In this document: positions 1 through 64,000 of the stretch, in pieces | Layout of the letters: each line of letters opens with the position of its first letter | How positions within the stretch are numbered: position 1 is the first letter of the stretch | DNA from: an uncultured Acidobacteriota bacterium | GTDB taxonomy: Bacteria; Acidobacteriota; Thermoanaerobaculia; Multivoradales; DATKCC01 | Length of the DNA: 64,000 bases | Direction of reading: 5' to 3' | Assembly (NCBI GenBank): GCA_963741925.1 | Contig: CAVUJU010000005.1 | Location: 2,369,447-2,433,446, forward strand | Notes under the pieces: generated by a model | What the model was told of the DNA's origin: nothing | The model's input: the letters and a program-made list of their open reading frames with translations, nothing else | The model's database searches: none | Program-made: the position numbers and the translations under genes

Positions 1-1
1 G

Positions 2-619: not shown

Positions 620-634
620 GCCGAGGAGAGAGAC

Positions 635-1654: not shown

Positions 1655-1739
1655 GCCGCGCCCGGATCCGGGGTGAGTCCGGCTTCGGCGTCTCGGCCCC
1701 GGGGACGGGCCGTTGCCAGGGCCACCGTCGGGCCGGCCG

Positions 1740-1960
1740 AGACAGAGCTCGGCCGCTTCACCCGGGATTGCCGTCTCGGCGCGTTCCCGACGGATGAAGC
1801 GGCCGAGCTCCGCCTCGGCCGGGCGATCGGGGTGAGGAGCACCGAGCGCGCCGACCTGCCCGAGGTCCGCCTCGGCCGGTTCACCCGGGATTGCCGTCTC
1901 GGCGCGTTCCCGACGGATGAAGCGGCCGAGCTCCGCCTCGGCCGGGCGATCGGCGTGGTG
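1740..1960. repeat. REP-like hairpin doublet (2 direct copies, ~121 bp period), each carrying the palindromes CGGCCGAG-ACAGAG-CTCGGCCG and GGCCGAGCTCCGCCTCGGCC
   Basis: near-identical direct repeat 1746-1832 / 1867-1953 with perfect short inverted repeats; lies immediately beside the RAYT gene. Confidence 0.75.
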
Positions 1961-1976
1961 AGCACCGAGCGCCTCG

Positions 1977-2462
1977 CTACCCCGATCCCAGCCGTTCCGG
2001 CTTCACCACCGAGTACGGGTACTCCTCGCGGCTTCGCACCAGGCGGGCCCTGACCGGGTTGTCCAGGAGGTAAGCGACCACCGCCTCCAGGCTCTCCCGC
2101 CGGCGGACGACGTGGTCCCAGAACGAGCGCTGCCAGAGGGGCTCGCCGTATCCCGCTCTCCGGACCCGCCGGGTGGAGTAGGACTTGAAGGCCCGGACCG
2201 TCTCGATGACCCGGGCCGCGTCGTCCAGGAGCCAGTGGAGGTGGCCGGGCATGAGGCAGGCCGCGAGAGTGGCCGCGTGCTCCGCGAGGGCCTCGAAGAC
2301 CGGCAGCGCGACTCGGGGAAGGGTGAACGGCTCACCGTCACCCACGGTGCAGAGGGTGACGTGCACCGGCCGCTGGGGCGGATACAGGCCCGGCGGCAGC
2401 CGGTTGCCGCGGCTGCGGCGCCAGGTGCGGTACACGCTGCTGGCCGGGGGCGTGCGCGTCAT
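1977..2462 (-). CDS. rayT: REP-associated tyrosine transposase (RAYT; IS200/IS605-like TnpA_REP)
   Basis: HuH-like HLHWLL, and the C-terminal stretch GEPLWQRSFWDHVVRRRESLEAVVAYLLDNPVRARLV typical of RAYT/IS200 TnpA (WQxxF.DH...Y..NPV); flanked both sides by REP hairpins. Confidence 0.8.
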   Translation of the reverse strand: MTRTPPASSVYRTWRRSRGNRLPPGLYPPQRPVHVTLCTVGDGEPFTLPRVALPVFEALAEHAATLAACLMPGHLHWLLDDAARVIETVRAFKSYSTRRVRRAGYGEPLWQRSFWDHVVRRRESLEAVVAYLLDNPVRARLVRSREEYPYSVVKPERLGSG

Positions 2463-2524
2463 CTCATCCTTCAGGACGCGACGGAGCGGCGGAACCTTGC
2501 AGGTCGGCGGCGTTCGGTGCCCGC

Positions 2525-2745
2525 CGGAGGGCTCGGCCGGCCGAGACAGAGCTCGGCCGCTTCATGGGCCTGGTGAGGTGGCAACGGCGACGCCGGGTGA
2601 AGCGGCCGAGCTCTGCCTCGGCCGGGGCGGGTGGGGGAGACAGAGGTCGATCGCTTCATGGGCCTGGTGAGGTGGCAACGGCGACGCCGGGTGAAGCGGC
2701 CGAGCTCTGCCTCGGCCGGGGCGGGTGGGGGAGCGTCCGGAGGTC
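2525..2745. repeat. REP-like hairpin doublet (2 copies, ~110 bp) related to 1740-1960 (GGCCGAGCTCTGCCTCGGCC palindrome)
   Basis: direct repeat 2530-2640 / 2640-2745 with the same palindromic core; sits between the RAYT gene and the 3' end of the gvp operon. Confidence 0.75.
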
Positions 2746-2880
2746 GCCGGGGTCTCGGGCCGGCACCGAGCTCGCCGGGGCAGGGCGAAGCCGAGGCGCT
2801 CGCCGGCGTTTCACCGCCTCCGAGCGGCGCGCGCCGTGCGCAAGGGCGAAAGCCCCCGGCCCGGCGCGGCCCGGCCCGTG

Positions 2881-18950: not shown

Positions 18951-20519
18951 GCGGGCGAGGGGCGCGAGCTTCGCCTCGGCGGTGCTCCAGCCGACCACCA
19001 GGAGGCCGAAGAACGGGTACTTCCGGTGCTCCCGGATCTCGCTCTCGAAGGCGACCGCTTCGTGGGCCCGGGCCAGGTCGGCCGGCAGGCGCACGAGGAA
19101 GCGGCTGCCGAGGCCCTCGGCGCTGGTCACGGAGAGGTCGCCGCCGTGGGCCCGCACCCTCTCCCGGGCGATCGAGAGGCCGAGGCCGGTGCCCCGGACC
19201 GTGCGGGTGAGGCAGTCCTCGGCCTGGTAGAAGGGCTCGAAGATCCGCCGGCGGTGCTCGCGGGAGATGCCCGGCCCGGTGTCCGAGACCGCGAGCTCGG
19301 CCCACCCGCCGTGGCGCCGGACGCCGACCTCGACGCGCCCGCCCGCCGGCGTGAGCTTGAGGGCGTTCGATACCAGGTTGGTGACCACCTGGGCGAGCCG
19401 CTGCGGGTCGGCGAGGACGGTGGGCGTCGGCCGGTCGAGCGCCAGGTCGAGCGTCACCGAGGAGGCCTCGGCCTGCGGGACGAAGGTGGCGCGGAGGTCG
19501 TCGAGGAGCCCGGCGAGGGGCACCGGCTCGAAGCGGTACTCGAGCTTCCCCGCCTCGATCTTCGACAGGTCGAGGAGGTCGTCGATGATCACCGCCAAGC
19601 GCTCGACGTTCCTCCGGGCCATGGCGAGGAACCGCTTCTGGGGCTCGGCGAGCGCTCCGGTCTGCTCGCGCCGGACCAGGTCGATCGAGCTCTTGATCGA
19701 GGTCAGCGGGGTGCGCAGCTCGTGCGACACGGTGGAGACGAAGGCGCTCTTGAGCTCGGAGAGCTTGGCCAGCTCCCGGTTCGCGTGCTGGAGCCGGCCC
19801 TCGACCCGGCGCCGCTCCTCGACCTCTTCCTCGAGGCGGCGGTTGGCGAGCTCCAGGCCGACGCGCACCTCCTCCAGGCGGCGCACGGCCTCGGCCTCGG
19901 AGTGGGCCCGGTTCTGCTCCCGGCGCACCCGGTCGACCAGGTAGCCGTAGAACGAGGCGACGGCGAACAGGAAGGGGATCCGGATGAGCGAAGCGGTGGT
20001 GAGGACGCCGCTCGCCCCCGACGTCGACAGGCCGTAGAGGTAGGCCGAGCAGACGACGACGGAGCCCAGGGCGATGAGCGCCAGGCTCTCGCCGATGGCG
20101 GCGAGGAAGAGGACGAAGAAGTAGAGGTAGAAGAACTCGGTGCCGAAGTGGCGGGTCAGGATCAGGGCGGTGGTGATCCACGCCCTGTCGGCCACCAGCA
20201 CTCCGGCGGTGAAGGGGCGGCTCCCGAGCCAGCGTGCGGGAAGCCTGGCGATCGCCACGTTCGAGGCGATCGCCAGGACGATGAGCGCGGTGAGCCCCGT
20301 CGAGAGCCCGGAGAACCCGGTCTCCGAGAGCACCATGTAGGAGGTCGCGATGATCAGGGTGAAGCGCAGCAGGACGAAGGCGTGGCCCCGGCTGCGGAGG
20401 GCCTGGCTGGATCCCCCCCGGAACCCCTCGACCCCCGTCCCGCCCCCGGGGGGCGAAGGGGATGCCCCCTCCCCGTCGCGATCGGGGCGTCGCTGGTTGC
20501 CCTCGGTCTCTTGGTCCAT
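18950..20519 (-). CDS. membrane sensor histidine kinase (multi-TM N-terminus + HisKA + HATPase_c); 3' end unresolved because of a frame break
   Basis: H-box SHELRTPLTSIK; N/G boxes VTNLVSNALKLT, GTGLGLSIARE; GC3 signal leaves this frame near 18950. Confidence 0.75.
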
Positions 20520-20532
20520 CGCCCGTCCAGGC

Positions 20533-20698
20533 TAGTGGTCCGTCAACCTTCAATTGACGGGTCCCGACGGTCCTTCACGTTGCTGGCGGCGTGGCTCCTC
20601 CTCGACGTAGGCCCCGCTACGCCTGCGTCGGAGCGCCTGGCCAGCGACGCGAAATCCTCGCCGGATACCTCTGTCAAGTGAAGATTGACGGACCACTA
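20533..20698. repeat. MITE-like ~165 bp element, copy 1, with terminal inverted repeats CTAGTGGTCCGTCAA...TTGACGGACCACTAG
   Basis: TIRs at both ends; internal core CTCCTCGACGTAGGCCCCGCTACGCCTGCGTCGG shared with the copies at 24184-24345 and 49700-49870. Confidence 0.7.
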
Positions 20699-20780
20699 GG
20701 GCGGGGCCCGGGCCGCCGCCATCGCGGTCGGTCCGGTTCGGGGGTCGGTGGCGCGGGCGACCCCGGCGTAGGACGGCCGC

Positions 20781-22490
20781 CTACTCGTCCCGGGGCAGGG
20801 GCTTCCTGGGCAGCGGCTCGTCGCGCATGGCGGCGTCGTAGAGGAAGGCCGCCATCACCACCGAGGCCTGCACCATGTCGTCGCGGTTCAGGTGGTCGAA
20901 CGTGTCCGCCGCGGTGTGGTGGGTGAGGGCGAAGTAGTCCCGCATGTCCTGGATGAACTGGAAGCCGGGCAGGCCGACCCGGTCGAAGGAGAGGTGGTCG
21001 GTGCCACCGGTGTCCTGGGTCGACACGGTGGTCGCCCCCAGGTCGTGGAAGGGGGCGAGCCAGGCCTGGAAGATGGGTACCACCGCCGCGTTTTCCTGGG
21101 TGTAGATGCCGCGGATCCGGCCGCCGCCGTTGTCCAGGTTGAAGTAGGCGGCGAGGTCGGCGTGCTCGGGCTTGACGGTGAGCGGCCCGCGCTCCGTGCG
21201 CAGGTAGGAGGGGAGCGCCTTCTGCTCCGGGTCCTCGGGCTCCGGCCGCGAGGCGAAGTGATGGGCCACGTAGGCCTGGGAGCCGAGGAGGCCCTGCTCC
21301 TCGCCGCTCCACAGACCCACCCGGATGGTCCGGCGCGGCTGGACGCCCAGGGCCTCGAGGATGCGCACCGCCTCCATGACCATCGCGCAGCCGGCGGCGT
21401 TGTCGGTCGCCCCGGTCCCGGTATGCCAGGAATCGAGGTGAGCGCCCGCCATGACCACCTGGTCGGCGAGGTCGGTCCCGGGGATCTCGGCGATCGTGTC
21501 GTAGGCCATGGGGTCGTCGTCGTAGAAGCGAGCGGCGACGTCCACCTCGATCAGGAGCGGCGCCACCTCGACCGCCGTCACCTCCTCGACCGCCGGCTCG
21601 CCGGCCGGCCGGGAGGCGCCCGCCATGCCGTCCGCCGCCTCGCCGGCCGCCGCCGAGGTCGTCTCCGCCTCGTCGTGGGCGGCCTCCAGGATCCGGACCA
21701 GCCGGTTGTACTGCTCGGCCTGCACCACCAGCGCCGGCACGCCGGGGCTCTCCCCGGCCTCGCGCGAGCCGCCGCCCGAGACCGACAGGATGCCGGCGTC
21801 CCGGAAGCTCGGCTCGAGGGTGGCGAGGGCCCCCTCCGACGCGAAGAGCTCGTTCATCTTGCGGCGCAGCTCCCAGCGCTTGCGGGCGCGGTCCCGCCAG
21901 TCCCCGCGGCGCGCGCCGGGGATCTCCAGGGTCTCGAGGGCGGCCAGGTGCTCGGCGTCCTCGCGCTGGACCACCGGGTCGTCCCAGCTCCGCAGCTCCC
22001 GGGCGTCGTCGAGGAGCAGGATCTTGCCGGCGAGCTTGCCCCGGTACTGCGCCAGGTCGTCCTCGCTCTCGATCGTCACCCGCATCGCCGGGCCGCGCAC
22101 GGGGCCGTCGGTGCCCGGGGTCCAGGCCTTGGGCAGGGCGATCAGCGGCATCTGGAACGGCTCGAGCTCGGTCACCGAGGCGCGGCTGAACGACCAGCCG
22201 CGGCCGAACGGCCCCCAGGGCTCCAGGTGGGCGTTGGCGAGCCCCCAGCCGGCGAGCTGGTCCCGGGTCCACTCGTTGGCCCGCTTCATGGCGGGCGAGC
22301 CGGTCAGGCGGGCGCCGATCCGAGTGGTGAGGTCGCGGGCGATCTCCATGACGTGGGAGTGGTGCAACCCTTCGTCCCGGATCCGGTTCATGGCGTCCAG
22401 GTTCACCGGCTCCTCGGCGCGGAGTGGGGCGGCGAGGACGCAGGGGACGGTGAGCAGGACGAGGACGAGCAGGAGACGGGCCTGGCGCAT
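20781..22490 (-). CDS. secreted M28-family aminopeptidase with PA domain
   Basis: signal peptide; HLDSW...D..SG...EE...GS (M28 metal ligands); 569 aa. Confidence 0.85.
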   Translation of the reverse strand: MRQARLLLVLVLLTVPCVLAAPLRAEEPVNLDAMNRIRDEGLHHSHVMEIARDLTTRIGARLTGSPAMKRANEWTRDQLAGWGLANAHLEPWGPFGRGWSFSRASVTELEPFQMPLIALPKAWTPGTDGPVRGPAMRVTIESEDDLAQYRGKLAGKILLLDDARELRSWDDPVVQREDAEHLAALETLEIPGARRGDWRDRARKRWELRRKMNELFASEGALATLEPSFRDAGILSVSGGGSREAGESPGVPALVVQAEQYNRLVRILEAAHDEAETTSAAAGEAADGMAGASRPAGEPAVEEVTAVEVAPLLIEVDVAARFYDDDPMAYDTIAEIPGTDLADQVVMAGAHLDSWHTGTGATDNAAGCAMVMEAVRILEALGVQPRRTIRVGLWSGEEQGLLGSQAYVAHHFASRPEPEDPEQKALPSYLRTERGPLTVKPEHADLAAYFNLDNGGGRIRGIYTQENAAVVPIFQAWLAPFHDLGATTVSTQDTGGTDHLSFDRVGLPGFQFIQDMRDYFALTHHTAADTFDHLNRDDMVQASVVMAAFLYDAAMRDEPLPRKPLPRDE

Positions 22491-22694
22491 GGTGGCAGCT
22501 CCGGTGCAGAGGGTGACGGGGATCGGGGAAACCGCCGGAGACTGTATCGCACCCGCGTCCCCCCGGCGGCGAACGCTCGCGGCCGGGCGCGTCCGATCGC
22601 CGGCGGACGGTACTCCGCCGGGCCGCTCTTGTGGTAGGAAGGGCCTCCCGATCCCGGCGCGTCTCGACGCCCGGCCCGGGGAGGAGGCCGCGCC

Positions 22695-23174
22695 ATGAGA
22701 CCGATCACCGCCAGCGACCTGATGAACCCGGAGGTTCTCACCGTCCCCGAGGACATGACCGTCCGCGAGCTCGCCGCCTTCCTGGTGGACAACGAGATCA
22801 CGGGAGCGCCGGTCACCGACCGCGACGGCCGGCTGGTCGGCGTCGTGTCAGTGATGGACATCGCCGAGACCGCCGCCGGCGACGAGGAGTCGCCCCTGGC
22901 CGACGGCCCGGACTACTTCGGCCGCGGCTGGGAGCAGGGCCTGAGCGACGACGAGCGCGAGGAGCTCGACCTCTTCGAGGACGAAGAGGAGCTGCTGGTG
23001 GGGGAGATCATGAACCCGGAGGTCCACTCCGTGCCCGAGGACACCTCGGTCTCGGAGATCGCCATGACCATGCTCTCGAACCACATCCACCGCCTCCTGG
23101 TGATCGACGAGGGAAAGGCGGTGGGGATCATCACCACCTCGGACCTCCTCGGGCTGCTGGTCGACGAGGCGTGA
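22695..23174 (+). CDS. CBS-pair domain protein
   Basis: two CBS motifs. Confidence 0.8.
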   Translation: MRPITASDLMNPEVLTVPEDMTVRELAAFLVDNEITGAPVTDRDGRLVGVVSVMDIAETAAGDEESPLADGPDYFGRGWEQGLSDDEREELDLFEDEEELLVGEIMNPEVHSVPEDTSVSEIAMTMLSNHIHRLLVIDEGKAVGIITTSDLLGLLVDEA

Positions 23175-23914
23175 GCCGGGCCGCTTCGCCGCCCGCGCCG
23201 CCGCTCGGCATCGTCGGAGGGATGGGGCCCCTGGCGTCGGCCGAGCTCCTGGCTACCATCTACCGCCTCGACGTCCCCGAGCGCGAGCAGGAGGCGCCGG
23301 CGGTGGTCCTGCTCTCGGACCCCTCGGTGCCCGACCGCACCGAGGCGATCCTCCGCGGCGAGACCGGCGAGCTGGTGCGGCGCCTGGCGGCGGCGATCCG
23401 CGACCTCGCGGGGATGGGGGCCGAGCGGGTGGTGATCGCCTGCTTCACGATCCATCGCGTGTTGCCCGAGCTGCCGGAGGAGCTGCGGCGGCGAGTCGTC
23501 TCGCTGGTCGACCTGACGGTGGAGGCGCTCCTCGCCGACCCTCGGCCGCGCCTGCTCCTCGCCACCACCGGCTCGCGCCGGAGCGGCCTGTTCACCGGTC
23601 ACCCGCGTTGGGCCGAGGCGGCGGGGCGCGTCGCCGTGCCGTCCGAGGGCGACCAGGAAGCCCTCCACGAGCGCCTCTACCGCCTCAAGAGGGGAGAACC
23701 GCCGGCGGCCATGGTGGCCTGGCTCGAGGAGCTCGCCGGCCGCTACCCGGCCACCGAGGGCTTCGTCTTCGGCTGCACCGAGCTCCACCTGCTCGAGCGC
23801 CCTCTCGCCGAGCGCTGGGGCGAGGCGGCGGCCCGCCGGCGGGTGGTCGACGCCCTCGCCATCGTCGCCCGGCGAGCGCGGGAGCTGGCGGTCGAGCCCA
23901 TGGCGGCCGGCTGA
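23171..23914 (+). CDS. aspartate/glutamate racemase family protein
   Basis: LGIVGGMGPLASAELL...VVIACFTIH motifs; GTG start overlaps the CBS-gene TGA (GTGA). Confidence 0.75.
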   Translation: MSRAASPPAPPLGIVGGMGPLASAELLATIYRLDVPEREQEAPAVVLLSDPSVPDRTEAILRGETGELVRRLAAAIRDLAGMGAERVVIACFTIHRVLPELPEELRRRVVSLVDLTVEALLADPRPRLLLATTGSRRSGLFTGHPRWAEAAGRVAVPSEGDQEALHERLYRLKRGEPPAAMVAWLEELAGRYPATEGFVFGCTELHLLERPLAERWGEAAARRRVVDALAIVARRARELAVEPMAAG

Positions 23915-23926
23915 TAACCTGGCGCT

Positions 23927-24187
23927 ATGGCCGCTCCGCGCCAGGGACCGCTCTCCGGTGTCGTCGGGCGCTTCGCCTCCCGCCTGCGCTTCCCCCAGCT
24001 CTTCGCGTTCTTCCTGGTCGTCTTCCTGGTCGACCTCGTCGTCCCCGACGCCATCCCCTTCGCCGACGAGATCCTGTTCGGGCTGCTCACCGTCCTCCTC
24101 GGCTCCCTGCGCCGCGGCGAGCCGCAGCCACCGCCAGGATCGCCGGGAGAGCGGGTGGAGAAGAACGTCACCCCGCCGAAGCGCTAG
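23927..24187 (+). CDS. small hydrophobic hypothetical protein
   Basis: 86 aa with two hydrophobic helices; weak support. Confidence 0.35.
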   Translation: MAAPRQGPLSGVVGRFASRLRFPQLFAFFLVVFLVDLVVPDAIPFADEILFGLLTVLLGSLRRGEPQPPPGSPGERVEKNVTPPKR

Positions 24188-24345
24188 TGGTCCGTCGACC
24201 CTCAACGGACACGGTATCTGGCGAGGATTTCGCGTCGCTGGCCAGGCGCTCCGACGCAGGCGTAGCAGGGACTACGTCGAGGAGGAGCCACGCCGCCAGC
24301 GGCGTGAAGGACCGTCAAGACCCGTCAGTTGAGGATTGACGGACC
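24184..24345. repeat. MITE-like element copy 2 (inverted relative to copy 1), TIRs GTGGTCCGTCGAC...TTGACGGACCAC
   Basis: reverse-complement match to the copy 1 core, plus TIRs. Confidence 0.65.
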
Positions 24346-24349
24346 ACCC

Positions 24350-24650
24350 GCAGGGCTCGAGCCCAACCGGTACCTGGGAGGGGGCGTCCCCTTCCCCCCC
24401 CTCGGGGGTGGGAAGGGGATCGAGGGGATGCGGGGGGGATCCGGTGGATCGTCCCCTTCCCCCCCCTCGGGGGTGGGAAGGGGATCGAGGGGATGCGGGG
24501 GGGATCCGGTGGATCGTCCCCTTCCCCCCCCTCGGGGGTGGGAAGGGGATCGAGGGGATGCGGGGGGGATCCGGTGGATCGTCCCCTTCCCCCCCCCGCG
24601 GGGGTGGGAAGGGGATCGAGGGGATGCGGGGGGGGGACCTAAAAGACGCG
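24350..24650. repeat. G-tract/C-tract tandem repeat array A (~4.5 units of 61-65 bp)
   Basis: unit GGTGGATCGTCCCCTTCCCCCCCCTCGGGGGTGGGAAGGGGATCGAGGGGATGCGGGGGGGATCC repeated head-to-tail. Confidence 0.9.
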
Positions 24651-25856
24651 GCAGACCAGGCCCTTGAGGTAGGTTCCTTCGGGGAAGGGCAGGGCGGTCG
24701 GATGATCGGGCGCCTGCTCGAGGCGGTGGGTGAGCCGGGCGTCGCGCCCCGCGTCGAGGGCGGCGTCGGCGACGATCTTCTGGAACAGGTCCGTCTTGAG
24801 GGCCCCGGAGCAGGAGAAGGTGACCAGGTACCCCCCCGGCTCGAGGAGCTGGCAGGCGAGGAGGTTGACGTCCTTGTAGCCACGGGCCGCCGCCTCGACG
24901 CGGCTCGGGGAGTCGGCGAACTTCGGCGGGTCGAGGACCACCAGGTCGAACCGGCGGCCCGCGGCCCGGAAGCCGCGCAGCACGGAGAAGGCGTTGCCCT
25001 CGGCCACCTCGAAGCGGTCCGGGCCGAAGCCGTTGAGCTCGGCGGTTCGCGCGAGGATCGCGCCGAGCGCCGGCGACGACTCGACGTGGGTCACGTGCCC
25101 GGCGCCGGCCGCGAGGGCGGCGTGGCCGAAGCCGCCGGTGTAGGCGAAGGCGTTGAGCACGCGGGCGCCCGCCGCCCGCCCGGCGACCAGCTCGCCCAGG
25201 CGGACGCGGTTCTCGCGCTGGTCGAGGTAGCAGCCGGTCTTGTGCCCGTGCCGGACGTCGACCAGGTGCCGGCAGGGGCCCTCGCGGATCTCCAGGAGCT
25301 CGGGCGGCGGCTCGCCCGCCAGCACGCCGGTGGCCGGCTCGAGTCCCTCCTTGGCCCGGGCCTCGGCGTCCGAGCGCTCGAAGACCCCCGCCGCCGGGAC
25401 GAGCTCGGCGAGCCGGCCGACGATCTCCGCCTTCCAGCGCTCCGCACCGGCGGAGAGGAACTGGCCCACCAGGTGATCGCCGTAGCGGTCCACCACCACC
25501 CCCGGAAGGCCGTCGGACTCGCCGTAGACCAGGCGCCGCCCGGCGGGCTCGTCGCCGGCGGGCACCGGCTCGCGGGTGGCGAGGGCCCGCTCCAGCCGGC
25601 GGCGGAAGAAGCCGGAGCCGACCTCCTCGTCGGGATCGAACGTCCAGATCCGCACCCGGATCTGCGAGGCCGGGGAGAGGGCGCCGCGAGCGAGGAAGGA
25701 GCCGTCGGCCGCGCGCACGTCGACGGTCGCGCCGAGGCCCTCCGCACCGCCCGGCGCGCCCTCGACTCGGGCGATCGCCCCGGAGAAGACCCAGGGGTGG
25801 CGGCGCAGGAGCGACTTCTCCCGGCCGCGGGAGAGGGTGACGGTGGGGTACGGCAC
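24639..25856 (-). CDS. rlmI: 23S rRNA m5C methyltransferase RlmI-like (PUA + SAM-MTase)
   Basis: LLRRHPWVFSGAI N-terminus; VLNAFAYTGGFG, LDPPKF motifs; GTG start. Confidence 0.75.
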   Translation of the reverse strand: MPYPTVTLSRGREKSLLRRHPWVFSGAIARVEGAPGGAEGLGATVDVRAADGSFLARGALSPASQIRVRIWTFDPDEEVGSGFFRRRLERALATREPVPAGDEPAGRRLVYGESDGLPGVVVDRYGDHLVGQFLSAGAERWKAEIVGRLAELVPAAGVFERSDAEARAKEGLEPATGVLAGEPPPELLEIREGPCRHLVDVRHGHKTGCYLDQRENRVRLGELVAGRAAGARVLNAFAYTGGFGHAALAAGAGHVTHVESSPALGAILARTAELNGFGPDRFEVAEGNAFSVLRGFRAAGRRFDLVVLDPPKFADSPSRVEAAARGYKDVNLLACQLLEPGGYLVTFSCSGALKTDLFQKIVADAALDAGRDARLTHRLEQAPDHPTALPFPEGTYLKGLVCRVF

Positions 25857-25939
25857 GGCGGTGGGTCCGATCGGGCTGGGCTCAGAACCTGTGAAGAACT
25901 CTCCGCCCGTAGCGGGGCCGGAGATTCTCTCACAGGCTC

Positions 25940-26482
<543 letters not shown>

Positions 26483-26622
26483 CCCGGTGAGTCTACCGCC
26501 GGCCGCGCCGCGAATCGCGGTCCGGATCTTGCTTATAGCGCGGGGAGAATATCCCTGCGCAAGGCCGGCAGCGGCAAAGGGCGATCCGACGATCGGAACA
26601 GGCGGAGAGGTTCGCGGCACAG

Positions 26623-26991
26623 ATGAGCCAGAGGCGATTTCCGAGGGTGGAGGCGGTGCGGCCCGTGGTGCTCGAGACGTTCGACGGTGCCGAGCTCGCC
26701 CGTCACTTCGTGCGCGCCGAGACGATCGGCCTCGGCGGCTGCATGGTGCGCTGCCCGGCGCCCCTGGCCCGCGGCACCGAGGTCGCGGTGCGGATCTGCC
26801 TCGCCGGCGGAGTGATCCGCGCCGAGTCCCGCGTGGCGTACGTCCGGGCGGGGAACGGCCGGGGCTACGAGATCGGGCTGGAGTTCCTGAGCATCCCGGA
26901 AGCCGACCGGCCGCTCCTCGACGCGGTGGTGGCGCGTGGCGGCGTCGCCCGGGCCGCGGCGGGCGAGGGGGCGGCGGAGCCGGCGGAGTAG
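26623..26991 (+). CDS. PilZ-domain protein (c-di-GMP receptor-like)
   Basis: RRFPRV...DLSLGG-type PilZ motifs (RxxxR ... GLGG). Confidence 0.6.
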   Translation: MSQRRFPRVEAVRPVVLETFDGAELARHFVRAETIGLGGCMVRCPAPLARGTEVAVRICLAGGVIRAESRVAYVRAGNGRGYEIGLEFLSIPEADRPLLDAVVARGGVARAAAGEGAAEPAE

Positions 26992-26995
26992 CGCC

Positions 26996-27580
26996 TCAGG
27001 GGTAGAGGAGGGTCGAGGTCCAGCCGGCGCCCTCGCGGGTGTAGAGGCGTCGCTCGTGCAGGCGGTCGGCCCGGTTCCACCAGAGCTCGATCCGCTCCGG
27101 CGCGAGGCGGAAGCCGCCCCAGAACGGGGGACGGGGCACGGCGCGGGCCGCGAAGCGCGCCTCGTACTTGGCCACCCGCACCACCAGGCGGGCCCGGCTG
27201 TCGAGGGGCGAGCTCTGGCGCGAGGCCCAGGCACCGATCTGGCTGCCCCGGGCGCGGCTCGCGAAGTAGGCGTCCGACTCCTCCTCGGGGACCCGGGCCA
27301 CCGGCCCTTCGACCCGCACCTGGAGGGCGAGGGAGGGCCAGTAGATGCACAGCGCGGCGTGCGGGTTCTCGGCAAGCTGCGCCGCCTTGCGGCTGGTGTA
27401 GTTGGTGAAGAAGACGAAGCCGCGCTCGTCGACCTGCTTGAGGAGCACCATCCGGGCCGAGGGCCGCCCCTCGGCGTCGGCCGTGGCGAGGGCCATGGCG
27501 GTGGCGTCGCCGGTCTCGGTCTGCTTCGCCTTCTCGAAGTGGGCGCGGATCTCCGCGATGGGGTCGGACGGGCGGGCCAT
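26996..27580 (-). CDS. pdxH: pyridoxamine 5'-phosphate oxidase
   Basis: PdxH family conservation; C-terminal RLHER.LYTR...W..LYP. Confidence 0.85.
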   Translation of the reverse strand: MARPSDPIAEIRAHFEKAKQTETGDATAMALATADAEGRPSARMVLLKQVDERGFVFFTNYTSRKAAQLAENPHAALCIYWPSLALQVRVEGPVARVPEEESDAYFASRARGSQIGAWASRQSSPLDSRARLVVRVAKYEARFAARAVPRPPFWGGFRLAPERIELWWNRADRLHERRLYTREGAGWTSTLLYP

Positions 27581-27691
27581 GGGTCGTGGGGAGCGTGGCG
27601 GAGGATCACTCCGGGGTGCGGAGTGTAGCAGCGGCGGGTGTTCCATTTACAGCGCGCGTGCAGGAAGTTCCCGCCCGGCCCGGACGGTAGG

Positions 27692-28681
27692 ATGGCCGCC
27701 ATGGACTACGTGAACCTCGGAAAGACCGGGCTCAAGGTCTCGCGCCTGTGCCTGGGATGCATGAGCTTCGGCGATCCGGGCTGGCGCGAGTGGGTGTTGT
27801 CCGAGCCCGAGGCGCGGCCGTTCTTCGAGCGGGCCCTCGAGCACGGGATCAACTTCTTCGACACCGCGGACATGTACTCGCTCGGGGCGAGCGAGGAGGT
27901 GACCGGCCGGGCCCTCGGCGAGCTGGCGCGGCGCGACGAGGTGGTGATCGCCACCAAGGTCTTCTTCCCGGTGAAGAAACACCCCAACGGCGGCGGGCTC
28001 TCGCGCAAGCACATCCTGGATGCGATCGACGGCTCGCTGCGGCGCCTCGGGACGGAGTACGTGGACCTCTACCAGATCCACCGCTGGGACGACGAGACGC
28101 CCATCGACGAGACCCTGGAGGCGCTCCACGACATGGTGCGCGCGGGCAAGGCGCGCTACGTCGGCGCCTCGAGCATGTACGCCTGGCAGTTCGCGAGCGC
28201 CCTCTACCGCGCCGACCTCCACGGCTGGACCCGCTTCGTCTCGATGCAGAACCACTACAACCTGGTCTACCGCGAGGAGGAGCGGGAGATGATCCCGCTG
28301 TGCCGCGCCGAGGGCATCGGCGTGATCCCCTGGAGCCCGATCGCCCGGGGCCTGCTGGCCGGCAACCGGGGGCGCGACGACGAGGGACGGACGAAGCGCG
28401 CGAAGGAGGACGACTACTCGCACCGCATGTACACGCGCGAGAGCGACTTTCAGGTGGTCGACCGGACGGCGGAGGTGGCGGGGGAGCTGGGGGTGTCGCC
28501 GGCGCAGGTGGCGATTGCCTGGCTCCTCCACCGGCCCGGGGTCACGGCGCCGATCGTCGGGGCGACGAAGCTCGAGCACCTGGAGGAGGCGGTGGCGGCG
28601 GTGGGGGTCGAGCTCGGCGACGACCAGATGGCGCGGCTCGAGGAGCCGTACGTGCCGCACCCGGTGCTCGGGCACTCCTGA
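27692..28681 (+). CDS. aldo/keto reductase
   Basis: GINFFDTADMY...; AKR catalytic tetrad context. Confidence 0.85.
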   Translation: MAAMDYVNLGKTGLKVSRLCLGCMSFGDPGWREWVLSEPEARPFFERALEHGINFFDTADMYSLGASEEVTGRALGELARRDEVVIATKVFFPVKKHPNGGGLSRKHILDAIDGSLRRLGTEYVDLYQIHRWDDETPIDETLEALHDMVRAGKARYVGASSMYAWQFASALYRADLHGWTRFVSMQNHYNLVYREEEREMIPLCRAEGIGVIPWSPIARGLLAGNRGRDDEGRTKRAKEDDYSHRMYTRESDFQVVDRTAEVAGELGVSPAQVAIAWLLHRPGVTAPIVGATKLEHLEEAVAAVGVELGDDQMARLEEPYVPHPVLGHS

Positions 28682-28889
28682 AGTCGGCTGGAAGGTTTGG
28701 TGGGTAGCCACGCCCGCGGGGCGGGTGGCTTTCTCGGCGGCAAACTGCGCCGGCGAGAAACCACCGCGCCCCGCGGGCTGCCCCCTCGGCGGTCGAGGCG
28801 GGCCCTTCGCCGGGGGGTACCTCCCCGAGCTGGTGGGAGAGAAGGGGGGATCGGCGGGGTTGCCGGTTTCACCGGCGAGAGGCGTTCTC

Positions 28890-28965
28890 GGGCGGCGGCC
28901 CGGGCGGCCGAGCCACAGCTCGGCTGCTTCATAGGACTCGAACGCGTGAAGCGGCCGACCTCTGC
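28890..28965. repeat. solo REP-like double hairpin between convergent genes (possible terminator)
   Basis: GCCGAGC-CAC-AGCTCGGC and GGCCGAC-CTCTGC-GTCGGCC palindromes resembling the RAYT-flanking REPs. Confidence 0.6.
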
Positions 28966-29030
28966 GTCGGCCGACCGGGCCGGAGGCCCGGCCCCGCCGA
29001 GGTCTCGCAGCCGGGGCGGCAGCCGGGGCG

Positions 29031-29075
29031 GTGGCGTCCCCTGGGGGAGGGAAGGGGATCGAGGGGATGTGGGGA
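29031..29075. repeat. solitary unit of the G-tract repeat family
   Basis: GGGGAGGGAAGGGGATCGAGGGGATGTGGGG. Confidence 0.6.
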
Positions 29076-29083
29076 GATCCGCT

Positions 29084-30598
29084 CTACTGGCTCCTCGCGG
29101 TGCGGATCTCGAGGCCTCGCGTTCGCGGCTCGATCTGGAGGTGCGCCAGCTCGTCCTCGGAGAGCACCCGGTCGAGGGCGATGTCCAGGACGTACTGGTG
29201 GCGCAGCTCCTGGTCGATCTCGGCGTAGGCCCGCGCCAGGTCGTCCCGGCTCTGGATCCGGAGGAAGCGCCCACCGGTCTCCCGGGCGACGCTCGCCAGC
29301 CGCAGCGGCGGCTCGAAGTTCGTCCGCCCGGTCGCCAGGCCGCCGATGCCGAGGACGTAGACCGGCACGCCGGCCCGCCGCGCGTAGAGCGAGGCCTGGC
29401 CGGCGTCGAGGTGGCTGCTCGAGTCCTCGCCGTCGGTGAGCACCACCAGGGCCCGCCGGCCGACCTGGCGCTCGAGCGCGAGGGTGGCGAAGACGATCGA
29501 GTCCCAGAGCGCCGTCTCACCGCCGGCCTCCAGCTCGTCGAAGGCGGCCGCGAGGTCGGCGGGCTCGCCGGTGAGGTCGTGGACCAGCCGGGGCGCGGTG
29601 TCGACGTCGACCAGGAGGGCTCGGTCGCCGGGGATCAGGGTCGCTTCGAGGAACTGCTCCGCGGCGTCCTTCGTCTCGCCCAGTACCGGCGTCATGCTGA
29701 CCGAGGAGTCGACCAGCAGGCCGAGGACCAGGGGGACCTGGCGGGCCTTGCGGAAGCGTTCGATGGCGACCTCTCGGCCGCCCAGACGGACCGCGAAGTC
29801 TTCGGGCCCGAGACTCGCGACGGGGCGCCCGCGCCGGTCGGTCGCGACCGCGAAGAGCTCGACCAGGTTGACGTCCACGTGGCCGGCGGCGCCCTCGCCG
29901 AGCAGGGGGCGAGCGTCTTCGAGGCTGCTCCCGTCGGCGAGGTAGGCGACCGCCCGCAGGTAGTCCCCGGCTCCGGGGTCGGGGGTCGGCACCCGGGCCC
30001 GGAAGGGCGGCCGGTCGAGGCGGGCGACCCGCTCCTGGTTGCGGAAGAGCTCGACGTGGTCGAGGGTCTCGCCCGGAGGCAGGGCGACCGCCATCTCGAC
30101 CTCCACCGCGCCCGTTGCGGGCCGCCCGCTCACCCGTTCGATGGTGACGCCGGAGGCGCTCTGCCGCGGGTCGAGGGTGAGGGAGTCCTCGCCGAGCCGC
30201 CGGCCGTCGGCGCCGTAAGCGACCGCCTGGAGCGTCCGCGGTGCGTCGCCCCCGGGCAGATCGAGGCGCACCGAGAAGGGCCAGTAGCCGTCGGCCGCCG
30301 CCTCGCGCCCGTCGACGAAGAACACCACCCGGTCGATGTCGGAGGAGGTCGAGACGGTGTCGATCCGGACCCGCCCCGCGACCCGCGGCGGGGGAACGAG
30401 GAGGAGCGGCGGGCCGGCGGGAGCGCCGACCGGATCGCGGCTCCGGTCGGCGGCGGCGCCCGGCCGAGCCGCCGGCGCCTGGGCGCGGCTCTCGCGAGGC
30501 CAGGGCCCGAGGGCGGCCAGAAGCGCCAGTGCCAGGACGGCCGCGAAAGCCGGCGACCGCCGCCGGACGAACCGGGCGTCGATCGGCGTCGAGCGCAT
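29084..30598 (-). CDS. secreted von Willebrand factor A (VWA) domain protein
   Basis: signal peptide; VLGLLVDSSVSM...TALWDSI (MIDAS DxSxS...T...D). Confidence 0.75.
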   Translation of the reverse strand: MRSTPIDARFVRRRSPAFAAVLALALLAALGPWPRESRAQAPAARPGAAADRSRDPVGAPAGPPLLLVPPPRVAGRVRIDTVSTSSDIDRVVFFVDGREAAADGYWPFSVRLDLPGGDAPRTLQAVAYGADGRRLGEDSLTLDPRQSASGVTIERVSGRPATGAVEVEMAVALPPGETLDHVELFRNQERVARLDRPPFRARVPTPDPGAGDYLRAVAYLADGSSLEDARPLLGEGAAGHVDVNLVELFAVATDRRGRPVASLGPEDFAVRLGGREVAIERFRKARQVPLVLGLLVDSSVSMTPVLGETKDAAEQFLEATLIPGDRALLVDVDTAPRLVHDLTGEPADLAAAFDELEAGGETALWDSIVFATLALERQVGRRALVVLTDGEDSSSHLDAGQASLYARRAGVPVYVLGIGGLATGRTNFEPPLRLASVARETGGRFLRIQSRDDLARAYAEIDQELRHQYVLDIALDRVLSEDELAHLQIEPRTRGLEIRTARSQ

Positions 30599-30639
30599 GA
30601 TGCTGGTGAGAGTCTACCCGATGCCTGGACTCCCCTGCC

Positions 30640-30895
30640 GAAGCGGTGGTAGGGGGCGTCCCCTTCCCCCCCGGTGGGGAGGGAAGGGAATGGACGGGAT
30701 GTGGGGGGGATGCGGGGGGCATCCGGTCAATCGTCCCCTTCCCCCCCCGTGGGGAGGGAAGGGAATGGACGGGATGTGGGGGGGATGCGGGGGGCATCCG
30801 GTCAATCGTCCCCTTCCCCCCCCCCGCTGGGGTGGGAAGGGAATGGACGGGATGTGGGGGGGGGGATGCGGGAGGCATCCGGAAGACCGGCGGGT
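30640..30895. repeat. G-tract tandem repeat array B (~3.5 units of ~75 bp) in a divergent promoter region
   Basis: unit GTCCCCTTCCCCCCCCGTGGGGAGGGAAGGGAATGGACGGGATGTGGGGGGGATGCGGGGGGCATCCGGTCAATC. Confidence 0.9.
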
Positions 30896-30910
30896 AACAT
30901 CGTCGCCGTC

Positions 30911-31702: not shown

Positions 31703-32770
31703 GCCCCAAAGCCGATGGGGGCGCCGATGAGAGCGCCGGCGAGCCGCGCCTGATCGTCGCCAACCTGGGCTGGGAGGAGGAGCTCGCAGGGGGTACCCGG
31801 CCGGGCGAACGAGCCCTGTCGAGGCGGGCGCGATCGGTGGTGGGTTCTGCCGCCGGCTGGCTCCGTCTGCTCGCCCGCGACGGCGACCGCCTCTGGGTAC
31901 CGGACGCCGCAGAGGCCGTCGACGTCGAGCCGCCGGGGGGCCGTCGGCTCGTCCTGCCGCGGGTGCGGCTGGAGCGTGGGGCCGCGGCCGGAATCGCGCC
32001 CGCGACGGAGGTGCTGGCCTGGGGGGAGAGCCCGGCCGTGGCGGCGCTCCGGCGGGGCTCACGGCCTTCCGGGGGAGCCTTCGCAAGCCACGGGTCGCTC
32101 CACCAGGCCCTCTGGTCGCTGGCTCCGGCGCCGCCGGAGGTCGCCGCCGCCTGCCACCATCGCGCCTTCGCCCTGGCGGCGGTCGAGGCGCTCCAGGAGG
32201 CGCGGCCCCGCGAGGAGGGGTGGGCGCTGCCCGGCGCGCGGATGGTCGCTTCCGTCGGCGAGCTCGAGCGGCACCTGGCGGCGGGCGGTGCGGCGGCGGG
32301 CGGCGGGCGCTGGGTGCTGAAATCGCCGTGGTCGGCGGCCGGCCGCGGGCGGCACCTGGGCACGGGGCCGGGCGACCTTCGCGAGCCGGCGAGCCGGCGC
32401 CACGTCGAGCGACTCCTGGAGCGCCACGGATCGCTCCTCTTCGAGCCGTGGGTGGACCGGCTGGCCGACTTCGGCGCCGCCGCCCTGGTGACGCCGGAGG
32501 GCCTCCGGCGGGTCGGCGTCCACGGCCAGGAGGTCGACGGTCGCGGGGTCTTCGCGGCGATCCAGCTCGCTCCGGAGCTCGCCGCCGACGAGCGCCGGCG
32601 CCTGGAGGCGGCCGTCGAGTCGGTGGGGGAGCGCCTGAGGGCCGCCGGCTACGTGGGGCCCTTCGGCGTCGACGCGTACCGCTTCCGGACGCCGGACGGC
32701 CGGCTCGTCTTCCGCCCCCTTTCAGAGGTCAACGCCCGGATGACCTTCGGGCTCCTCGCGCACGTCTTGA
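31699..32770 (+). CDS. hypothetical protein, possibly ATP-grasp-like; 3' end runs into repeat array C, so the true stop is uncertain
   Basis: GC3-biased ORF; GTG start overlaps the DUF455 TGA. Confidence 0.5.
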
Positions 32771-33730
32771 CCGGATGCCCCCCGCATCCCCTCGATCCCC
32801 TTCCCTCCCCACGGGGGGGAAGGGGACGGTTGACCGGATGCCCCCCGCATCCCCTCGATCCCCTTCCCTCCCCACGGGGGGGGGGAAGGGGACGGTTGAC
32901 TGGATGCCCCCCGCATCCCCTCGATCCCCTTCCCTCCCCACGGGGGGGAAGGGGACGGTTGACTGGATGCCCCCCGCATCCCCTCGATCCCCTTCCCTCC
33001 CCACGGGGGGGGAAGGGGACGGTTGACTGGATGCCCCCCGCATCCCCTCGATCCCCTTCCCTCCCCACGGGGGGGGGAAGGGGACGGTTGACTGGATGCC
33101 CCCCGCATCCCCTCGATCCCCTTCCCTCCCCACGGGGGGGAAGGGGACGGTTGACTGGATGCCCCCCGCATCCCCTCGATCCCCTTCCCTCCCCACGGGG
33201 GGGAAGGGGACGGTTGACCGGATGCCCCCCGCATCCCCTCGATCCCCTTCCCTCCCCACGGGGGGGAAGGGGACGGTTGACTGGATGCCCCCCGCATCCC
33301 CTCGATCCCCTTCCCTCCCCACGGGGGGGGGAAGGGGACGGTTGACTGGATGCCCCCCGCATCCCCTCGATCCCCTTCCCTCCCCACGGGGGGGGGAAGG
33401 GGACGGTTGACCGGATGCCCCCCGCATCCCCTCGATCCCCTTCCCTCCCCACGGGGGGGGGAAGGGGACGGTTGACTGGATGCCCCCCGCATCCCCTCGA
33501 TCCCCTTCCCTCCCCACGGGGGGGAAGGGGACGGTTGACTGGATGCCCCCCGCATCCCCTCGATCCCCTTCCCTCCCCACGGGGGGGAAGGGGACGGTTG
33601 ACTGGATGCCCCCCGCATCCCCTCGATCCCCTTCCCTCCCCACGGGGGGGAAGGGGACGGTTGACCGGATGCCCCCCGCATCCCCTCGATCCCCTTCCCT
33701 CCCCACGGGGGGGGGAAGGGGACGCCCCCT
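32760..33730. repeat. C-tract/G-tract tandem repeat array C (~15 units, 62-66 bp; G-run length varies 7-10)
   Basis: unit CCGGATGCCCCCCGCATCCCCTCGATCCCCTTCCCTCCCCACGGGGGGGAAGGGGACGGTTGA is the reverse complement of the array A/B unit; no unique spacers. Confidence 0.95.
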
Positions 33731-33768
33731 CCCGCTCTCTCGGCTCCCCGCGAAACTCGGCTCGTTCG

Positions 33769-35346
33769 TCACGATTCTGGCCGAATCAGACTCCTCGCGT
33801 AGAACTTCGCCAGGTCCTCCTTGAGCTGCTTGCGCGCCTCCGGGTGGATGTAGATCATGTGGCCGGACGGGTAGTAGCCCCACGTGAGGTTCTTCTCGAG
33901 CGAGGGGTCGAGGCCCATGTGCGAGACCGTGTACTCGGTCTCGAAGAAGGGCGTCGCGAAGTCGAAGTAGCCGTTGGCGAAGAAGACCTCGAGCCCCGGG
34001 TTCGCCGACATCGCCTGGCGCAGATCCTCCGCGACGTCGGGCAACGGGGCACCGCGACCGAACCGCCCGCCGCCGTGATGGTCGTCCCAGTCGCGCCCGA
34101 CCTCCGGGTAGTTCGTCGGCTTGTAGAGGTCGTCGCTCTCGTACCCCAGCTCGCCGGTCGAGTACGCGTTCCAGGACGCGACGAACGCCGCCGCGAAGGC
34201 GGCCTCCGAGGCGTCCGACTCCGGGCGCTCGCCGGCCGCGTCGTGATCGATGCCGAGATACCGCGCGTCGAGCCGCCCCACGGTGCGCCGCTCGCCCCGC
34301 AACAGCTCCTTCTGGAAGCGCCCCGGAGCGATGCGCAGGTTCGCCTCGCGCAGGAAGTCCTCGGGCATCGCCGTGTAGCGGTGGAGCTTCGCCACGACCG
34401 CGTTGCGCTCCGCCTCGCCGAGGTGGCTTCCCTTGGCGAGCGCCGCGGCGTAGTCGCCGGAAGCGAACTCGCGCACCTCGTCCAGGAAGGCGTCGAGGTC
34501 GGCGGGCTTCGGATCGATCCGGTCGTGGTACCAGGCCGTCGCGGCCATCGTCGGAAGGTAGAGCTCGTACGGCAGGTCGTTCGAGAAGGGCGGCCCGGCG
34601 AAGTCGTGGTAGGGGTTCAGGTACGAGGAGATCATGACCGCGCCGTTGAACGCCATCCCCTGGTCCTGGAGCCAGGCGAGGAGCCCGGCATTGCGGGTCG
34701 TTCCGTACGACTCGCCGAGGAGGAACTTCGGCGAGTTCCAGCGCCGGTTCTCGCCCACCCAGCGCTCGATGAACTGCCCGAACGCCGCGATGTCCGCGTC
34801 GGTACCGTAGAAGTCCTTCGGCTTGCCTTTGCCGACGATCCGGGAGTAGCCCGTACCCATCGCGTCGATGAAGACGAGATCGGTCACGTCGAGCAGGCTT
34901 TCCGGATTCGGCTCGATCTCGTAAGGAGGCGGGGGCGTCGGCTCGGCGTCCGAGGCGTCGACCCGCACCGGCCCGAACGATCCCATCTCGAGCCACATCG
35001 TCGAGGAGCCCGGGCCGCCGTTGTAGCAAAACGTCACGGGCCGCTTCGTCGCGTCGGTGATCCCGTCTTGGGTGTAGGCGACATAGAACATCCGCCCGAT
35101 CGTCTCGTCCTTGTCGTTCGTGAGATCGATCGTCGCGGCTGTCGCCGTGTACGGGATCGTCCGTGCGCCGAGAGAGATCTTGTGGTGCGTCACCGCGGCC
35201 GCGGGCGCCGGCTCGACTTTCTCCGCCTTCGGTTTCTCCATCTCGCCGGCCTTGCCCATCGGCGGTTCCGCGGCCAGGGCGATCGCCGCGCTGAAAAGAC
35301 CCGCAGAGAGACCACAGCCGATGACGAACCTCGCAAACTGTTTCAT
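33769..35346 (-). CDS. secreted serine carboxypeptidase, peptidase S10 family
   Basis: signal peptide; GESYGT catalytic serine motif. Confidence 0.85.
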   Translation of the reverse strand: MKQFARFVIGCGLSAGLFSAAIALAAEPPMGKAGEMEKPKAEKVEPAPAAAVTHHKISLGARTIPYTATAATIDLTNDKDETIGRMFYVAYTQDGITDATKRPVTFCYNGGPGSSTMWLEMGSFGPVRVDASDAEPTPPPPYEIEPNPESLLDVTDLVFIDAMGTGYSRIVGKGKPKDFYGTDADIAAFGQFIERWVGENRRWNSPKFLLGESYGTTRNAGLLAWLQDQGMAFNGAVMISSYLNPYHDFAGPPFSNDLPYELYLPTMAATAWYHDRIDPKPADLDAFLDEVREFASGDYAAALAKGSHLGEAERNAVVAKLHRYTAMPEDFLREANLRIAPGRFQKELLRGERRTVGRLDARYLGIDHDAAGERPESDASEAAFAAAFVASWNAYSTGELGYESDDLYKPTNYPEVGRDWDDHHGGGRFGRGAPLPDVAEDLRQAMSANPGLEVFFANGYFDFATPFFETEYTVSHMGLDPSLEKNLTWGYYPSGHMIYIHPEARKQLKEDLAKFYARSLIRPES

Positions 35347-59648: not shown

Positions 59649-59666
59649 CCGTGGCCGCCAACCGGG

Positions 59667-61234: not shown

Positions 61235-61259
61235 AGCCAACGGCCACGGGGCACAGATA

Positions 61260-63895: not shown

Positions 63896-64000
63896 GACAG
63901 ACGGCTTCCTCCTACGGAGCCGACCAGCGAAGCACCTGGCACCTCCAGGGCGCGGCCTCGAGGAGAACTCCAGCTACGACTCGACGATCGGCAAGCTCGT

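Follow-up and report, generated by a model that had tools for sequence, protein, structure and literature searches.

A probable REP/BIME-like family of G-tract hairpin repeats at gene ends in Thermoanaerobaculia-type Acidobacteriota

We analyzed a 64-kb stretch of DNA from an uncultured Acidobacteriota bacterium (contig CAVUJU010000005.1, positions 2,369,447 to 2,433,446; hereafter the window), and in particular a short tandem array of G-rich repeats, array A, which belongs with further arrays and solitary copies to a single group of repeats that we call the G-tract family. Genes were mapped with Pfam and with a self-trained codon log-odds caller that reproduced the Pfam-backed genes. Array A (24385..24636, G-rich strand on +) consists of four head-to-tail units that start at 24385, 24450, 24515 and 24580, as located by CGTCCCCTTCC anchors. 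Three of them are full 65-bp units, and one is 3'-truncated in its tail. Tandem Repeats Finder places the array at 24385-24634, with a period of 65, 3.8 copies and 98% matches. The tandem array of the original prediction is therefore confirmed, with about 4 units instead of 4.5. Unit 1 is preceded by the leader GGGAGGGGG (24376..24384, +), and a leader with the consensus GGGnGGGGG stands ahead of the first unit in nearly all arrays and solo units.

Array A had been described as a neighbor of a miniature inverted-repeat transposable element (MITE) and as lying downstream of rlmI, and both statements are correct. On one side, the DUF6116 gene (23927-24187, +; identified by Pfam and by the codon-usage gene caller) is followed by MITE copy 2 (about 161 bp, 24187..24347), which occupies the same spacer as array A, at a distance of about 25-37 bp. 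On the other side, the array faces the 3' end of an rlmI-like methyltransferase gene (24639..25856, -; Pfam PUA_3 and Methyltrans_SAM), whose stop codon TAG (24639-24641, minus strand) is found 2 bp past the array end. The C-rich strand of array A is the predicted continuation of the rlmI-like mRNA.

The window contains further copies of the same unit. Its 21-nucleotide (nt) core, GGGAAGGGGATCGAGGGGATG, was matched 23 times with at most 3 mismatches (0.00 matches expected by chance): 4 times in array A, once in a solo unit, 3 times in array B and 15 times in array C. The solo unit (29031..29086, +) has lost its left hairpin arm; it contains an exact 21-mer core (29049-29069), and its envelope in a hidden Markov model (HMM) of the unit is 29038-29086. 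Its earlier description as a degenerate unit (29031-29075) holds, but not the distance of 9 bp from the 3' end of the VWA gene (29084-30598, -). This distance is 0 bp, because the canonical last triplet of the unit, CTA (29084-29086), is the VWA gene stop codon. About 70 bp upstream of the solo unit lies a copy of an inverted-repeat module (28916..28962) in a mosaic arrangement. The module is associated with the window's RAYT gene (for a tyrosine transposase associated with repetitive extragenic palindromes, REPs) and resembles REP doublets forming hairpins (REPINs).

Array B (30657..30885, +) is made of 3 units of 75 bp, a variant with an 11-bp internal duplication, and is located between two genes whose starts diverge, the VWA gene (30598, -) and a DUF455 gene (30911, +). 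Array C (32767..33724, -) comprises 15 units, which are 63-66 bp long and have C-tracts 7-10 long. Next to it is a leader module of roughly 70 nt (33725..33797, -) that recurs at two loci of a relative (L032 and L066) and from which a peptidase S10 gene takes its last 9 codons and its stop. A second degenerate solo unit (20405..20462, -), detected with the unit HMM and absent from the original prediction, lies about 70 bp from MITE copy 1. The G strand is on + in array A, the solo unit 29031-29086 and array B, and on - in array C and the solo unit 20405-20462, so that orientation indeed flips between loci. The proposed location at gene 3' ends applies to array A and the solo unit, but not to array B with its divergent gene starts. 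All five family loci fall within a 13-kb stretch (20405-33797), and the remaining 50 kb of the window are without any. A separate compositional feature is found at 58001-64000, where G+C falls from about 0.72 to 0.61-0.64 and GC skew is strongly negative; this segment may be horizontally acquired.

Units of the family measure 63-75 bp and share a common build. A CGTC tag is followed by a 13-14-bp G:C-rich hairpin (CCCCTTCCCnCCCC / GGGGnGGGAAGGGG) with TT/AA in mid-stem and a loop of 3-4 nt, by a G-tract tail segment of roughly 30 nt (GATCGAGGGGATGCGGGGGG), and by a small and weak second hairpin (GGATGC/GCATCC). The 3' end of the unit reads GGTCAA or GATCTA. The tag precedes the stem in nearly all units, and its T and C are predicted to be taken into the stem. 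Both hairpins are predicted on either strand, with a minimum free energy of about -40 kcal/mol per unit and z = -3.2 to -3.8 relative to shuffles for the C-rich strand. We aligned 46 distinct units, taken from the window and from related genomes, and 95.3% of the cells of helix 1 were paired. Two adjacent helix-1 base pairs showed compensatory CG<->UA exchanges, giving CCCTCT/AGAGGG and CCCTTT/AAAGGG variants, and cells with double changes were more frequent than in shuffles (14 versus 4.4 +/- 1.6, exceeded in 0/500). Only the outer 4 bp of helix 2 were retained. In one unit elsewhere (L060, 7837-7919), the apical loop of hairpin 1 contains an additional small hairpin (CTGAGCTTCGCTCAG), with the basal stem kept.

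Every unit has at least five tracts of three or more G on its G-rich strand, and every unit contains a canonical G-quadruplex (G4) motif. Of the 36 motifs of this type in the whole window, 24 are these units, and G4Hunter scores reach 1.9-2.1 over the 3' 40 nt of the unit. The G-tract pattern is kept in a variant subfamily despite divergent sequence. As a prediction from sequence, the G-tract tail would therefore have G-quadruplex potential on one strand.

Codon scores were negative in all six frames of the arrays, and unit lengths of 63, 64, 65 and 66 bp, which vary by C-tract slippage, break the reading frame. The arrays are thus non-coding. A scan at Rfam gathering thresholds gave no match in the window, and in 16 related loci it detected tRNAs and nothing else. 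When the 20-34.5 kb region was scanned by E-value, the arrays showed only sub-threshold, miRNA-like noise. We also considered and rejected two other known types of element. The arrays are not clustered regularly interspaced short palindromic repeats (CRISPR), as units abut directly, without unique spacers, and they are not intrinsic terminators, as no T/U run follows the hairpin and no terminator-like site is present in the arrays.

The family is not limited to the window. We scanned one genome for each prokaryotic species with an exact pattern, which matched at least 76 loci. Among the matches listed, 71 were confirmed by the unit HMM, and the assemblies that contain them, at least 16 in number, carry the label Thermoanaerobaculia or Acidobacteriota. 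A repeat confined to one region is thereby excluded, and the family is dispersed, as had been proposed. Among the matches listed, 30 loci (on many contigs) belonged to MFD01721.bin.1.17, 12 to MFD05684.bin.1.267 and 10 to SRP214966_co3_65. The window's own genome was not among them; judged by protein identity and synteny, its nearest relatives are these metagenome-assembled genomes (MAGs). Solo units dominate: the 91 arrays listed outside the window comprised 69 single units, 12 arrays of 2, 4 of 3 and 3 of 4 units, and one each of 5, 8 and 9. With the 15 units of array C, the predicted size range from solo unit to 15-mer is therefore covered. Orientation was uniform within arrays. In L031 (3558-4129), five G-tract units follow one another with a period of 129 bp. 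All are embedded in an identical spacer of roughly 70 bp, so that a higher-order tandem repeat of unit and spacer occurs in addition to arrays of units alone.

No match to the family was found in viral contigs. Five of the listed matches to the 21-mer failed the unit HMM and were set aside, namely those in Chthoniobacteraceae (L004), Schlesneria (L015), Naasia (L029) and Leptospirales (L070) from other phyla, and L012 in MFD05684.bin.1.267, a MAG of the Acidobacteriota. The HMM match of a Dehalococcoidia locus (L036) was weak, at 24 bits. We treated the non-acidobacterial matches as chance or binning noise.

To relate the units to genes, we compared 76 occupied spacers against a background made up of every gene pair in the same listed loci. 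Convergent spacers were enriched (27 occupied versus a background of 76; odds ratio 3.9, p = 4.5e-6) and divergent spacers were depleted (5 versus 72; odds ratio 0.34, p = 0.02). Tandem spacers (44 versus 321) showed no bias in unit orientation (27 versus 17, p = 0.17). Among 49 genes converging on the GGTCAA end, 18 have their stop 14-21 nt (mode 19) after the GGGGATG anchor. Because this is a near-fixed offset inside the unit, the unit's own TCA, CTA or TTA is the gene stop. In five converging genes, the open reading frame (ORF) continues into the unit. Stops on the other side of the unit cluster 31-57 nt before CGTCCCC, in a recurring leader module that begins with (TGA/TAG)CGAACGAG. These data show that G-tract units are extragenic and found at gene 3' ends, in either orientation.

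Orthologous sites in related genomes differ in occupancy and copy number. We compared the window with the fully syntenic locus L078 (79% protein identity) and with the partially covering loci L077 (88%), L079 (78%) and L080 (74%). At the rlmI 3' end, which is covered in the window and L078 only, the 4 units of the window correspond to 1 degenerate unit in L078. The spacer between the VWA and DUF455 genes has 3 units in the window, a remnant in L077 and none in L078, where the spacer is 100 bp. The spacer between gene 9 and peptidase S10 holds the 15 units and leader of array C in the window and a degenerate solo unit of a variant subtype in L080, and it is empty in L077 (where the genes overlap), in L078 (27-bp spacer) and in L079. 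Unit identity was 97.5-100% within an array versus 77-88% between the arrays of the window, and therefore arrays grow in place; array-specific unit variants are also seen in the arrays of the relative. For the earlier suggestion that the repeat is mobile or recombinationally active, the differences at orthologous sites and the array-specific variants are supportive. Transposition itself did not find such support.

The location of units directly after stop codons, their enrichment between convergent genes and a hairpin kept by compensatory changes would all suit functional elements that evolved in the host, with similarity maintained by selection and gene conversion and not by self-spreading. 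Candidates are bidirectional factor-independent terminators, stabilizers of mRNA 3' ends, and G-quadruplex/i-motif regulatory switches, the last in line with the canonical G4 motif of every unit and the G-tract pattern retained in the divergent subfamily. We nevertheless think this explanation unlikely. Near-identical sequences of 60-75 nt at dozens of unrelated loci, together with presence or absence at orthologous sites, require copying and not convergence. Arrays of 9-15 units are hard to justify functionally, there is no U-tract, and orthologous genes in L078 and L079 do without a unit.

Direct tandem repeats of 63-75 bp that are dispersed and intergenic, differ in copy number between relatives and have stops overlapping unit ends also recall the mycobacterial interspersed repetitive units (MIRU), a type of variable number tandem repeat (VNTR). 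Supply et al. reportedly described MIRU units in 1997 as direct tandem repeats in operons, with small ORFs overlapping the flanking genes. A MIRU-like minisatellite of this kind, with small reading frames in operons that overlap flanking genes and couple translation, is rather improbable here. Solo units make up 69 of the 91 listed arrays, orientation to genes is not fixed (the 27 versus 17 units above), and it is the convergent spacers that are enriched. Codon scores are negative in all frames and the four unit lengths break the frame, and a strong hairpin dominates each unit. The likeness to the MIRU-VNTR loci of Mycobacterium tuberculosis extends to intergenic direct tandem repeats of 40-100 bp that are dispersed, variable in copy number and overlapping with stop codons, but the G-tract family lacks a conserved frame and a fixed orientation, consists mostly of solo copies and has a strong hairpin.

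Array C illustrates how the repeats alter adjacent genes. Together with its leader, it replaces the last ~13 codons of gene 9, whose homologues end in ...LLAHVLAGRCGLGRLELHR*, and the last ~5 codons of the peptidase, where KFYEAAMH* becomes KFYARSLIRPES*. The array follows directly after codon 356 of gene 9. This gene no longer has a stop codon of its own, and its ORF (31699-33345, +) stays open across 9 repeat units, for 192 more codons and 548 aa in total. An identical 548-aa product is present in public data (P0001), while homologues have about 350-370 aa. The open frame and this matching record could be taken to indicate that the upstream gene truly has a proline-rich repeat domain at its C-terminus, encoded by array C. 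However, homologues end 10-20 residues after ...FGLLAHV, the array has a codon score of -0.34 to -0.70 in all frames versus +0.27 to +0.51 in real genes, and the same units are non-coding and present in both orientations elsewhere. A genuine repeat domain is thus very improbable, and the 548-aa product is likely an annotation artefact, the other option being a real tail encoded by the repeats.

Short, non-coding, multi-copy and intergenic units could also be conventional MITEs mobilized by a DDE transposase, or fragments of such elements, all the more as array A and the solo unit at 20405 each adjoin a true MITE. The two copies of that MITE in the window (copy 1 at 20535-20696 and copy 2 at 24187-24347, both ~161 bp) have terminal inverted repeats GTGGTCCGTCAAYCYTCAA and are inverted relative to each other. 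Copy 1 has TA at both flanks, and there is an overlap between copy 2 and the DUF6116 gene's TAG stop. In L078, the equivalent two spacers hold a different MITE (GCCTGGACTATTCATGAGCC...). The G-tract units are unrelated in sequence to the neighboring MITE, which has terminal inverted repeats of its own, and they are organized head-to-tail. Neither terminal inverted repeats nor target-site duplications of G-tract units were visible when flanks were listed or when empty sites were compared with filled ones, the compared sites being too diverged for exact boundaries; the check for target-site duplications that had been proposed with the original prediction was therefore negative. With a different MITE in the equivalent spacers of L078, adjacency reflects shared permissive spacers, and we give the MITE explanation almost no weight.

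G-tract units occur in mosaics with other modules. Two kinds of tail module are common to many solo units. In addition, G-tract units are interleaved with halves of an inverted-repeat element with arms GAGCTCGGCCGCTTCA, and such mosaics were found in the window, in L032, L034, L046 and L066, and in others. In SMAG-type genomes, a conserved module of roughly 45 nt (TGCTTCGAGTAGGCCTCCATCGCCACATCGCAGCG..GTTTCAT) is located to the right of solo units (L042, L063, L025, L024, L035, L028, L059, L027, L075, L037 and L014); it is not a consistent ORF. A small ORF starting from a conserved ATGAAAC upstream of the solo units in these genomes was also considered and rejected, as indels shift the frame between loci.

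The inverted-repeat element with GAGCTCGGCCGCTTCA arms is linked to the RAYT gene of the window (1977..2462, -; 161 aa). The RAYT assignment is based on NCBIfam REP_Tyr_transpos (80.2 bits at a cut-off of 80, E = 1.3e-22), with a score just under the cut-off for Pfam Y1_Tnp. REPIN-like modules with these arms are present on both sides of the gene (1745..2707), in tandem copies at 1745-1933 and 2549-2707, and the RAYT orthologues in L104 and L105 (81% and 65% identity) are flanked by the same type of element. The G-tract family is thus not the cognate repeat of the RAYT, although both co-occur in mosaics that resemble bacterial interspersed mosaic elements (BIMEs). In L104 (MFD01721.bin.1.17; 4753-5976 and 1-3057), the RAYT orthologue adjoins a group II intron reverse transcriptase (RVT_1 and GIIM) and gas-vesicle genes (GvpL/F, GvpA and GvpK).

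Among known repeats, the closest parallels are found in REPs. These occur mostly in convergent or unidirectional spacers near 3' ends, and their termini can give stop codons; head-to-tail dimers are negligible, CGTC-tagged REPs have no dedicated transposase, and acidobacterial RAYTs have longer inverted repeats at their flanks (PMC3733652). The last two points agree with what we see for the G-tract family and the RAYT of the window. The CGTC REPs (Di Nocera, De Gregorio & Rocco 2013, PMC3733652) resemble the G-tract units in having CGTC before a short hairpin, in their extragenic placement in convergent or unidirectional spacers near 3' ends, in termini that can supply stops, and in the absence of a transposase gene flanked by units. 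They differ in their stem, which has 8-9 bp with A:T at positions 1-2 (13-14 bp and G:C-rich in G-tract units), and in a 4-5-nt loop and a 3-nt CCA tail (a 3-4-nt loop and a ~30-nt G-tract tail in G-tract units) (PMC3733652). The tag of a REP (GTAG or CGTC) lies unpaired at one end of the hairpin; for G-tract units, the TC of the tag is predicted to pair. Moreover, CGTC REPs form head-to-head dimers and G-tract units head-to-tail arrays, and CGTC repeats were reported in five phyla that do not include the Acidobacteriota (PMC3733652), to which the host of the G-tract family belongs.

With REPIN-RAYT systems and Escherichia coli BIMEs, the G-tract family shares high-copy hairpin repeats that persist vertically in a lineage, mosaic clusters and a RAYT in the same genome. 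However, REPINs are inverted pairs (mostly head-to-head or tail-to-tail dimers) and their RAYT is flanked by cognate units, neither of which applies to G-tract units, and successive REPs in a BIME, an element also marked by IHF or gyrase binding, alternate in orientation, whereas G-tract units are uniform within arrays. The pneumococcal BOX elements (boxA-boxBn-boxC) likewise have a leader module followed by a variable number of units of roughly 45-65 bp, with a stable predicted structure and an intergenic location. Their sequence is unrelated. In the G-tract family, several alternative modules serve as leader or tail, and we found no terminal inverted modules like boxA or boxC. The comparison with REP/BIME that had been drawn for the G-tract family therefore applies to the hairpin, the extragenic location with its convergent bias, the supply of stop codons and the mosaics, but not to cognacy with a RAYT or to the head-to-tail organization, which is unlike REPINs and BIMEs.

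We conclude, with a probability of roughly 0.8, that array A and the solo unit belong to a family of non-coding interspersed repeats which is REP/BIME-like and restricted to Thermoanaerobaculia-type Acidobacteriota. The data show a multi-copy, multi-species hairpin repeat with REP-like placement, stop-codon donation, mosaics, local amplification and variable occupancy. The category is a familiar one, no new mechanism is demonstrated, and the original prediction is essentially right.

Several observations weigh against this conclusion. No G-tract unit flanks the RAYT gene of the window or those of L104 and L105 within 0.4-4 kb per side (~0.4 kb upstream in L105), and none was found at 23 more distant metagenomic RAYT loci. 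Head-to-tail arrays are atypical for REPs, and no transposition event or enzyme is demonstrated for G-tract units. The compensatory exchanges in helix 1 mainly concern one subfamily and thus represent few independent events. Since loci were recruited by an exact 21-mer in the right hairpin arm, conservation of this arm and of the first G-tracts is partly due to ascertainment. No hairpin-plus-T-run terminator site is present in any array of the window. Finally, no clean insertion boundary is definable, as empty and filled sites are only 74-88% identical (at the protein level).

For a repeat family of this kind, arrays would most likely grow by local multiplication, through replication slippage or unequal recombination, because of the array-specific variants and the variable homopolymer lengths. 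Spread to new sites would most likely proceed through a single-strand hairpin intermediate without target duplication, either by an HUH/Y1 enzyme such as the resident RAYT acting in trans or by hitch-hiking inside REPIN mosaics. In the host, a very stable hairpin would come directly after stop codons in transcripts from either strand. It might hold back 3' exonucleases and limit read-through, and the termination of translation could be disturbed as well; these RNA-level effects of the arrays are inference only. Liang, Rudd and Deutscher (2015) reportedly found interference with translation termination for those E. coli REPs that lie no more than about 15 nt from a stop codon.

Two further ideas go beyond this conclusion, and we regard them, taken jointly, as a speculative and doubtful extension. 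First, the unit might be a selected bistable element that alternates between hairpin and G-quadruplex, with an i-motif on the other strand; the three G-tracts of the 3' arm could instead join the two conserved downstream G-tracts as a G4. If so, a whole bacterial class would have dispersed switches exactly at stop codons, and these could control translation termination, the 3' ends of transcripts or replication, besides promoting their own tandem expansion. Second, the G-tract family might be the first CGTC-tagged repeat family whose spread is tied to a RAYT in trans, via the REPIN/G-tract mosaics.

Dispersed hairpin repeats such as REP, BIME, MIRU and BOX are known mainly from Proteobacteria, Firmicutes and mycobacteria, and the G-tract family extends them to uncultured Thermoanaerobaculia. 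Its build is unusual: a long G:C hairpin is joined to a tail capable of forming a G4, and the head-to-tail arrays reach 15 units. Neighboring genes have their C-termini and stop codons rewritten by these elements, and the arrays cause annotation errors, as in the 548-aa record for a protein of roughly 370 aa. Copy number differs between related genomes, and arrays could therefore serve as strain markers. The G-tract family is also a natural test case for the spread of CGTC-type repeats without a flanking transposase and for the function of G4 motifs at bacterial gene ends.

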